From sequence record MW584153.1: DNA of 64,000 nt. One strand, written 5' to 3'. The position numbers were made by a program, and so were the translations under genes. Shown one piece after another: positions 57,510 through 57,818 of this stretch (the stretch's first letter is position 1; each line of letters starts with the position of its first letter). This stretch comes from Mycobacterium phage prophi79-1. The notes beneath the pieces are model-generated. The model saw only the letters and a program-made list of their open reading frames with translations, made no database searches and had not been told where the DNA came from.

Positions 57510-57818
57510 ATGACGAAGTTAAAGCTAATCGCCGTTTCAGTTGTATTTGCAGCCGCAAGTTCAACTTTCGTTGCGCACGCTCATGCTGATTCGGTCAACT
57601 GGGACGCCATCGCCGCCTGCGAGAGCGGTGGGAACTGGGCCATCAACACCGGCAACGGGTTCTACGGTGGGCTCCAGTTCACTCTGGGGACATGGCGAGC
57701 CAACGGCGGATCCGGGATGCCACATCACGCTTCGCGCGCCGAGCAGATTCGCGTCGCGGAGAATGTGCTGCGGTCCCAGGGCATCGGCGCGTGGCCGGTG
57801 TGCGGGCGTCGTGGGTGA
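57510..57818 (+). CDS. secreted Rpf-like (resuscitation-promoting-factor-type) lytic transglycosylase domain protein
   Basis: Signal peptide [26 protein letters not shown], then [37 protein letters not shown]...GAWPVCG. The upstream 42 aa of the track ORF overlaps the terminase and is Arg-rich. Confidence 0.7.

Follow-up and report, generated by a model that had tools for sequence, protein, structure and literature searches.

We analysed a stretch of 64,000 nucleotides from Mycobacterium phage prophi79-1 (sequence record MW584153.1), here called the window, which carries a gene for a protein that belongs to the family of resuscitation-promoting factors (Rpfs). This gene, rpf, lies on the + strand at 57510-57818, including the stop codon, and its product is, as judged from its sequence, an RpfE-type lytic transglycosylase with an export signal. 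The gene has been retained long-term immediately downstream of terL, the gene for the terminase large subunit, and its mature domain is under strong purifying selection. We lean, if not heavily, towards the view that rpf is a functional gene of a Mycobacteroides abscessus prophage, that it encodes a minimal exported transglycosylase of the RpfE type, and that it is co-expressed with the terminase in lytic growth.

The rpf product is predicted to be an RpfE-type transglycosylase

The rpf reading frame starts with ATG and encodes an RpfE-like pre-protein of 102 amino acids, and the same 102-residue product was obtained from independent gene calls in four assemblies. In the related prophage L016, a stop codon is found one codon 5' of the ATG homologous to that at 57510, which supports this ATG as the true start of rpf. 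An alternative open reading frame (ORF) of 144 residues, beginning at 57384, was ruled out by the L016 stop codon just before the ATG; the extension also overlaps terL. An earlier note on this DNA, made from the letters alone, had described a 102-residue ORF with a classical signal peptide, an Rpf catalytic domain containing the motif CESGG, and a second cysteine within WPVCG. The ORF is present exactly as described, and the domain and the signal peptide were borne out by the comparisons below. The same note had allowed that the ORF might instead be the true C-terminus of the terminase, cut off by an assembly error. This possibility is excluded, given that the terminase aligns to the C-terminus of its counterpart in the mycobacteriophage PenguinLover67 and that the ORF is present in more than eight independent assemblies.

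Residues 26-98 of the product match the Pfam family PF06737 (Transglycosylas) with E=8.5e-35 and a score of 119.7 bits, compared with a cut-off of 27, and the match covers positions 2-77 of the 77 in the profile. The PHROG family phrog_29757 ('transglycosylase') was matched with E=2e-32 over profile positions 5-105 of 201; the C-terminal half of that profile, which corresponds to a tail of the type seen in Rhodococcus phage Weasels2, is absent from the rpf product. The best match among solved structures was the catalytic domain of Mycobacterium tuberculosis RpfE (4CGE; E=3.4e-39, residues 28-102, 85% identity), with which the alignment runs end to end and without a gap. Matches to RpfE, RpfC and RpfB in the PDB had E values of 1e-25 to 1e-39. 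Because RpfE (136 bits, 85% identity) outscores both RpfC (98 bits, 66% identity) and RpfB (94 bits), we place the product in the RpfE subgroup, that is, nearer to RpfE than to RpfA-D. The NCBIfam equivalog models for RpfC and Rpf scored far under their cut-offs (116 against 200 and 115 against 180, respectively), and the product is thus not an equivalog of RpfC or of M. luteus Rpf.

The mature catalytic domain comprises residues 27-102 (57588-57815). The glutamate of the CESGG motif, whose codons begin at 57618, is Glu38 (57621-57623); it aligns with the corresponding glutamate of RpfE (4CGE) and RpfC (4OW1 and 2N5Z) and was invariant in every phage variant compared. Cys37 (57618-57620) and Cys98 (57801-57803), the latter in WPVCG, align with both cysteines of the RpfE and RpfC structures, and a disulfide bond between them is predicted. 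The protein ends in WPVCGRRG.

The signal peptide varies in sequence and keeps its layout

The signal peptide was judged from sequence features and from conservation in homologues. Residues 1-26, encoded by 57510-57587, have the n/h/c layout of a Sec signal peptide, with Lys3 and Lys5 followed by a 17-residue hydrophobic core (residues 6-22; Kyte-Doolittle 11-residue mean up to 2.7) and by A-H-A|D at positions 24-27, in agreement with the FVAHAHA ending that had been read as a classical signal peptide. Neither a lipobox cysteine nor a twin arginine was found in the N-terminus of the product. Cleavage is predicted after Ala26 (AHA|DS), which would leave a catalytic domain of 76 residues.

The A-x-A|DSVNWD junction is common to six homologues. 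The signal peptides of these six are unrelated to one another in sequence, and all of them combine a basic n-region with a hydrophobic core and with A-x-A directly before DSVNWD; MWKLISGIVAIAGLTSFAPVSHA, MFKFTIIAAALLNLWAVSFNSAVQAHA, MFKFVSTFAVTFSFLPVFLNAPLARA and MCNKRTRLRLAFAAIFVLQALIALPIAAHA are examples of such sequence-unrelated variants. That the sequence changes and the properties do not is, therefore, good evolutionary evidence that export matters.

The segment that encodes the signal peptide (57510-57587) behaves as an AT-rich cassette that is hypervariable across the prophage variants. Its GC content is 46%, and 38% at third codon positions, as compared with 67.5% and 80% in the mature part of the gene. 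The cassette has 42-48% nucleotide identity to the prophage variants, whereas its flanks are 81-96% identical. This divergence exceeds that expected from neutral drift (dS, the synonymous divergence, being 0.16-0.5), and it therefore points to recombinational replacement or to diversifying selection. A hypervariable signal-peptide cassette of this kind appears not to have been described previously.

rpf is retained next to terL, and its mature domain is under purifying selection

The terminase large subunit, a protein of 573 amino acids encoded on the + strand at 55751-57472, matches PF03237 (E=1.4e-11) and phrog_38 (E=3.5e-96), and has 55% identity with that of PenguinLover67 in an alignment that extends to the C-terminus. 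A spacer of 37 nucleotides (57473-57509), which is 81-97% identical among the M. abscessus prophage variants, separates terL from rpf. The order of terL followed by rpf is preserved in the diverged M. abscessus prophages L015, L016 and L026, whose terminases are 95-98% identical to that of the window, and also in two metagenomic phage fragments (L025 and L027), in which the terminases are 73% and 59% identical and the portal proteins 62% and 56% identical, respectively. Across the variants, 0-7 of the 75 residues of the mature domain differ at dS values of 0.16-1.26, and the ratio of nonsynonymous to synonymous divergence (dN/dS) of the domain is 0.02-0.13 for all comparisons apart from one near-identical pair. 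These results show that purifying selection on the mature domain is strong and that the gene has been kept over a long period at the same place, immediately downstream of the terminase gene. The position of rpf is fixed across divergent phages, and the GC content of its mature domain (67.5%) is close to that of the phage (62.6%). The conserved linkage of terL and rpf appears not to have been described previously.

rpf derives from a cellular gene of the rpfE-locus type

Outside the prophages, the best matches in a large protein database were mycobacterial 'transglycosylase family proteins' of about 100-110 residues, which are 70-80% identical to the rpf product over the full length. When the mature domain was compared, genes of the rpfE locus were the closest (85-92% identity), M. 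tuberculosis RpfE being at 85%; Streptomyces phage BRock gp43 (78%), RpfC (66%), Weasels2 gp46 (65%), gp63 of Rhodococcus phage REQ1 (60%) and the tape-measure motifs (about 46-58%) followed. A homologue of 106 residues in M. thermoresistibile is encoded in a chromosomal region with the order clpX ... mobA - [106-aa Rpf] - [171-aa Rpf] ... valS, which is the rpfE locus. We take its 106-residue and 171-residue genes to be the tandem rpfE/rpfE2 pair that has been described in environmental mycobacteria (PMC3987819). Among the 80 best loci of species-representative genomes, 59 are in a POR-TPP-mobA context and none adjoins a terminase or portal gene. The minimal architecture, a signal peptide plus the domain in 106-108 residues, is a normal cellular form at the mycobacterial rpfE locus, and a 108-residue homologue from Mycolicibacter has the same AHA|DSVNWD junction as the phage protein.

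In a neighbour-joining tree of the 75-residue domain, the phage genes fell inside the rpfE-locus group. Because a domain of this length is too short for supported branching, the argument for the origin of rpf rests on the identity ranks and the gene context, and these indicate that a cellular RpfE-type gene was captured whole, rather than that a tape-measure motif was set free. The synteny of the chromosomal locus (mobA ... rpfE ... valS) is not found around rpf, which lies between the terminase gene and a phrog_17260 gene. Given this prophage location, and given that the cellular relatives lie in the POR-TPP-mobA locus, rpf is RpfE-like by descent but is not an orthologue of rpfE. The M. abscessus chromosome has rpfA, rpfB, rpfC and a single rpfE, MAB_1597 (PMC8262987), and lysogens thus carry a second RpfE-type gene.

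The tape-measure protein has no Rpf domain

Rpf-like motifs in mycobacteriophages had been said to be embedded normally in tape-measure proteins (TMPs), and the TMP encoded here to carry a different hydrolase-like block and no CESGG. Both statements agree with our searches. Among 144 Mycobacterium phage records with an Rpf-like match, the match was inside the TMP in every one of those listed (about 90), and the relatives PenguinLover67 and Saguaro have such a match. Most of the 1980-residue TMP of the prophage is in the window, and rpf is about 52 kb from it on the prophage map. No Rpf match and no CESGG was found in this TMP, and the rpf ORF is the sole Rpf domain of the window. The hydrolase-like block, at TMP residues ~1120-1238 (2392-2748, + strand), is not Rpf; it has the pattern HGSGEALD...HMDHVH and matches phrog_16241 ('endolysin', E=1.1e-14) and PDB 9FLH ('LysM domain-containing protein', E=1.6e-14). 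The PenguinLover67 TMP contains an Rpf-like motif at 1272-1335, which lacks the cysteine (QLEAGG), together with a block homologous to residues 1120-1227 of the window TMP. The window TMP carries the second, hydrolase-like block alone. PenguinLover67 gp9, a 'membrane protein' encoded in the same slot as rpf, was considered as a possible Rpf remnant and was rejected, as it had no Pfam or PHROG match and no resemblance to Rpf.

A repeated palindrome marks the terL, LysA and portal genes

A 24-bp palindrome, TACTACCT-N8-AGGTAGTA, is located at 55691-55714, in a 65-bp divergent gap, 36 nucleotides upstream of the terminase start, and is a putative operator/promoter element of a terL-rpf unit. A copy at 58944-58967 lies between a RuvC-like gene (- strand) and a DUF1360 gene (+ strand), at the head of the DUF1360-portal-protease genes, and another, at 17002-17025, is 6 nucleotides upstream of the gene for LysA. 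Further copies are at 25308-25331, 36964-36987 and 43474-43497. When up to three mismatches were allowed, the window had 6 copies, as against 0 expected. A relaxed scan added weaker copies at 16330-16351, 33486-33507 and 50786-50807, and one upstream of the head-tail adaptor gene (L013:1296-1317). The sites at terL and at the portal operon are conserved in L015, L016 and L026, and the palindrome is absent from PenguinLover67, Imvubu and the metagenomic relatives. As the arms are identical in sequence at every site, we believe that the palindrome is bound by a DNA-binding regulator rather than forming mere hairpins, and that it probably serves a phage regulator as operator. The phage-wide palindrome appears not to have been described previously.

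No copy of the palindrome is present upstream of rpf, the 37-nucleotide spacer included. Scans with E. coli-type consensus sequences found no promoter-like or terminator-like site in the spacer and none flanking rpf, and the RNA folds predicted around the gene, at 57460-57530 (z=-0.09) and 57800-57900, were no better than those of shuffled sequences. From the presence of the palindrome at terL, LysA and portal and its absence at rpf, we infer that terL and rpf form a unit, with rpf in second place, which is controlled along with the lysis and head genes; rpf would thus belong to the lytic cycle. The regulatory context, therefore, suggests that rpf is expressed in the lytic cycle rather than in lysogeny. 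In the M. abscessus lysogens for which RNA-seq has been published (GSE161710), most prophage genes are silent (PMC8092301).

The prophage and its gene neighbourhood

The exact Rpf protein, together with its neighbourhood, is found in M. abscessus chromosomes, with host genes just past the integrase; the element is, therefore, a prophage. All window genes tested are identical to those of GCA_017175095.1. The element is temperate, resembles the Bclasvirinae and is, as the GenBank name of its Rpf protein indicates, of the type of prophiGD79-1 in Cluster MabQ. ProphiGD79-1 has been described as a Cluster MabQ prophage of 76,148 bp (Dedrick et al. 2021; PMC8092301), and IMG/VR, a collection of viral contigs, contains versions of 74-76 kb. 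Membership in Cluster MabL was ruled out, as prophiGD43A-6 has just the minor-tail module in common with the window. This minor-tail-protein module (7565-10465) is 93-95% identical to those of the otherwise unrelated MabL prophages prophiT48-1 and prophiGD43A-6, which looks as if a host-range module had been exchanged. Among characterised phages, the nearest are the Bclasvirinae mycobacteriophages PenguinLover67, Quesadilla, Saguaro and Imvubu, with about 72% nucleotide identity in the terminase gene only and about 52% identity of the portal at the protein level. Their common gene order is terminase, a small gene or nothing, RuvC (- strand), DUF1360 and portal.

terL and rpf are the sole + strand genes between two blocks of - strand genes. 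The earlier description of rpf as lying between terminase and portal is right on the terminase side, where rpf follows the stop of terL (57472) after 37 nucleotides, but is loose on the other, where three genes intervene. These are the convergent gene for a 172-residue phrog_17260 protein (57882-58400, - strand; E=8.4e-84), which marks the 3' end of the presumed terL-rpf unit, the RuvC-like resolvase gene (58376-58936, - strand) and the DUF1360 gene (58986-59339, + strand). Genes for the portal (59366-61234, + strand), a prohead-protease-like protein (61277-62755, + strand) and, at the end of the window, a tyrosine integrase (62933-63961, - strand) follow. The lysis genes are distant from these: LysA, with M23 and amidase domains, is encoded at 17032-18273 and LysB at 17982-19415.

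The slot 3' of rpf (57819-58400) is variable. It is filled here by the phrog_17260 gene and in L015 by a gene for a 71-residue protein (L015:6301-6627), and about 250 extra bases are found there in L022; the region downstream of rpf is just 29-31% identical in L015 and L022. Elsewhere in the window, a - strand ORF of 740 residues and its neighbours (~44749-47282) resemble, with 76-78% nucleotide identity, the WXG-100 motif proteins found in other M. abscessus prophages, and this WXG-100 polymorphic toxin cassette sits in the prophage interior and not at the att junction. The integrase gene comes directly after the genes for the prohead-protease-like protein and a DUF7196 protein (61277-63961; L013:1-2108), and host genes come next. 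Judged by the gene order in PenguinLover67, where the protease gene is followed by a small gene and then by major capsid ... adaptor, the head-gene block would contain attP and the integrase gene, and the prophage would, therefore, split its structural genes between its two ends.

Discussion

The roles proposed in the earlier note, help in peptidoglycan penetration or lysis and an effect on dormancy and resuscitation, are plausible. The interpretation that we favour is a lytic one. rpf and the terminase gene would share a transcript, governed by the palindromic element that also precedes the lysis and portal operons, and the rpf product would thus be made during lytic growth. The product would be exported by Sec and cleaved after Ala26. 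Working outside the membrane, the exported enzyme would cut glycan strands in the peptidoglycan of the infected cell, perhaps with the host endopeptidase RipA as a partner, as in the case of RpfE, and lysis would release it. Both RpfE and RpfB bind RipA (PMC2262848). For the phage, the likely benefit would be that cells lyse more readily, that cells which do not grow or have thick walls are infected more readily, or both. Several published observations make a link between Rpf proteins, or peptidoglycan hydrolases of phage, and infection: Rpf-deficient hosts are less well infected by some phages, according to a 2025 meeting report (PMC12908700), infection by a Rhodococcus phage induces host rpf genes (PMC10986025), and the peptidoglycan-hydrolase motifs of TMPs aid infection of stationary-phase cells (PMC1796659).

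Several points weigh against this interpretation. The gene is not a classical member of a lysis cassette, since it is about 40 kb from the LysA and LysB genes, and the prophage already has a two-domain LysA, so that the need for an extra glycosidase is not evident. No obvious Shine-Dalgarno sequence precedes the rpf ATG. The palindrome may be a repressor operator, an activator site or an RNA hairpin. The consensus sequences used in the promoter and terminator scans can miss mycobacterial signals, including an internal rpf promoter, and the published RNA-seq data cover lysogens other than those of this prophage. The enzyme activity, export and RipA binding that we ascribe to the rpf product are drawn from homology.

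One could envision other roles for the gene. A resident prophage might express rpf as a second RpfE-type enzyme and so help M. abscessus to regrow after dormancy, to form biofilms or to persist. The prophage occurs in several clinical M. abscessus lineages, its rpf is host-derived and lies about 6 kb from the integrase end, and, by adding to the single MAB_1597, it recreates the duplication seen as tandem rpfE/rpfE2 in environmental mycobacteria. We nevertheless consider such lysogenic conversion doubtful, if worth keeping in mind. rpf has no promoter-like site, terminator or palindrome of its own and lies 37 nucleotides behind the terminase gene in the same orientation; it is not at the att junction, the usual place of prophage-expressed genes in M. 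abscessus, and most prophage genes are reported to be silent in its lysogens (PMC8092301). A core lytic function is also a better fit to a terL-rpf linkage that is kept down to 56% portal identity, and to the occurrence of homologues in large Streptomyces and Rhodococcus phages, beside lysis genes in BRock. At the other extreme, rpf might be a decaying or non-functional passenger, or an artefact of annotation, as its small size, the lack of a clear ribosome-binding site and the compositionally odd 5' end could suggest. This seems hardly credible for a gene with a dN/dS of 0.02-0.13, a domain match at E=8.5e-35, and a frame, catalytic residues and signal peptide that are intact in all variants.

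The remaining alternatives concern where the enzyme would act. If it were freed at lysis, it might diffuse to dormant neighbours and resuscitate them, or loosen their walls for the progeny phage. The predicted form of the protein, secreted, minimal and diffusible, with no anchoring domains, would suit such a wake-up factor, as would the action of Rpfs on dormant cells, the contribution of TMP hydrolase motifs to stationary-phase infection (PMC1796659) and the poorer infection of Rpf-deficient hosts by some phages (PMC12908700). The case is purely inferential, the same features fit a simple lysis accessory, and we think that this role is unlikely. A composite version, in which a captured host RpfE-type gene is made with the packaging genes, the diffusible enzyme rouses or loosens dormant neighbours, and the sharply bounded, hypervariable signal-peptide cassette has arisen as export was re-tuned again and again or as the pre-protein evaded something that targets it, strikes us as improbable too. 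Finally, the enzyme might be carried by the virion and replace, at entry, the Rpf motif missing from the TMP. The relatives PenguinLover67 and Saguaro have an Rpf-like motif in the TMP, which the prophage lacks, and rpf is among head and packaging genes. Virions, however, assemble in the cytoplasm, and a cleavable Sec signal takes a protein away from there; nor is the product a relocated TMP segment, since it belongs with the cellular RpfE type and its identity to the TMP motif is only 46%; and it has no structural-protein domain. We regard a virion enzyme as very unlikely, and retain lytic-cycle expression with the terminase as the preferred interpretation.

In mycobacteria, Rpf enzymes govern how cells leave dormancy and play a part in persistence. 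M. abscessus is a pathogen refractory to drugs, and attempts are being made to treat its infections with phages. A second RpfE-type enzyme added by a prophage could alter the regrowth or persistence of lysogens; alternatively, rpf could serve the phage in the lysis or infection of cells that are not growing, and would then be useful to engineer into therapeutic phages.

Comparison with known systems

The finding does not reveal a new kind of system. Stand-alone phage Rpf genes are a known kind, and this one is already named in GenBank, which holds the exact protein as QSM01889.1, 'resuscitation-promoting factor [Mycobacterium phage prophi79-1]' (WP_100459437.1). No mention of Rpf or of a transglycosylase was found in the literature on M. 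abscessus prophages that we searched. The view that a free-standing Rpf is atypical holds for characterised mycobacteriophages but not for actinophages, in which the arrangement is common (BRock, Weasels2 and REQ1, among others): among the 80 best IMG/VR loci, 73 have the Rpf domain in an open frame of at most 477 residues, not in a TMP, and about 20 of these are of the minimal, domain-only type.

The proteins of phrog_29757 (BRock gp43, Weasels2 gp46, REQ1 gp63 and those of IMG/VR contigs) share with the prophage rpf product a signal peptide and an Rpf domain encoded as a separate phage gene, and BRock gp43 also has the AQA|DSVNWD junction in common with it. They differ in their C-terminal extensions, which are LysM in BRock, M23 plus LysM in REQ1 and a tail of 85 residues in Weasels2, whereas the prophage protein is domain-only. 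They differ also in setting, as the BRock, Weasels2 and REQ1 genes are among early or lysis genes of phages of 51-137 kb, and the prophage rpf is tied to the terminase gene in a temperate phage of 76 kb. BRock gp43, a secreted Rpf with LysM, is encoded three genes from the endolysin gene gp40. It adjoins gp44 (L003:2404-3486 comprises gp44-gp43), which bears a signal peptide and is annotated as 'glycoside hydrolase'; to our reading of its sequence, gp44 looks like an NlpC/P60 peptidase. If this is true, gp44-gp43 would be a phage-borne pair mirroring the host partnership of RipA with RpfE or RpfB.

The TMP 'motif 1' of Barnyard and Giles, also seen in PenguinLover67 and Saguaro, and the domain in some Cluster A LysA proteins are the same Pfam domain, are likewise phage-borne and host-derived, and have the same presumed peptidoglycan target (PMC1796659, PMC3314691). 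The TMP motifs, in contrast, are embedded in proteins of 1,100-2,500 residues, are delivered by the virion and have no signal peptide, whereas the prophage rpf is predicted to yield a separate, exported protein.

Sec-exported and signal-arrest-release (SAR) endolysins, such as Lys44 of Oenococcus phage fOg44 and Lyz of phage P1, cross the membrane by means of host Sec before, or without, the action of a holin. Lys44 and Lyz provide the closest functional analogy to the rpf product, with no homology to it. Each of them is, however, the main endolysin of its phage and is encoded in the lysis cassette, whereas rpf is about 40 kb from separate LysA and LysB genes; because the prophage has these, its Rpf would be at most an accessory.

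The closest likeness is to RpfE itself (Rv2450c, 4CGE) and to the minimal Rpfs of the rpfE locus, with which the prophage protein shares the catalytic glutamate, the pair of cysteines, the WPVCGRRG ending, the architecture and the A-x-A|DSVNWD junction. As compared with the genes of that locus, rpf is set apart by its place in a prophage behind the terminase gene, by an AT-rich signal peptide that is swapped between variants and by a regulation that is presumably in the hands of the phage.

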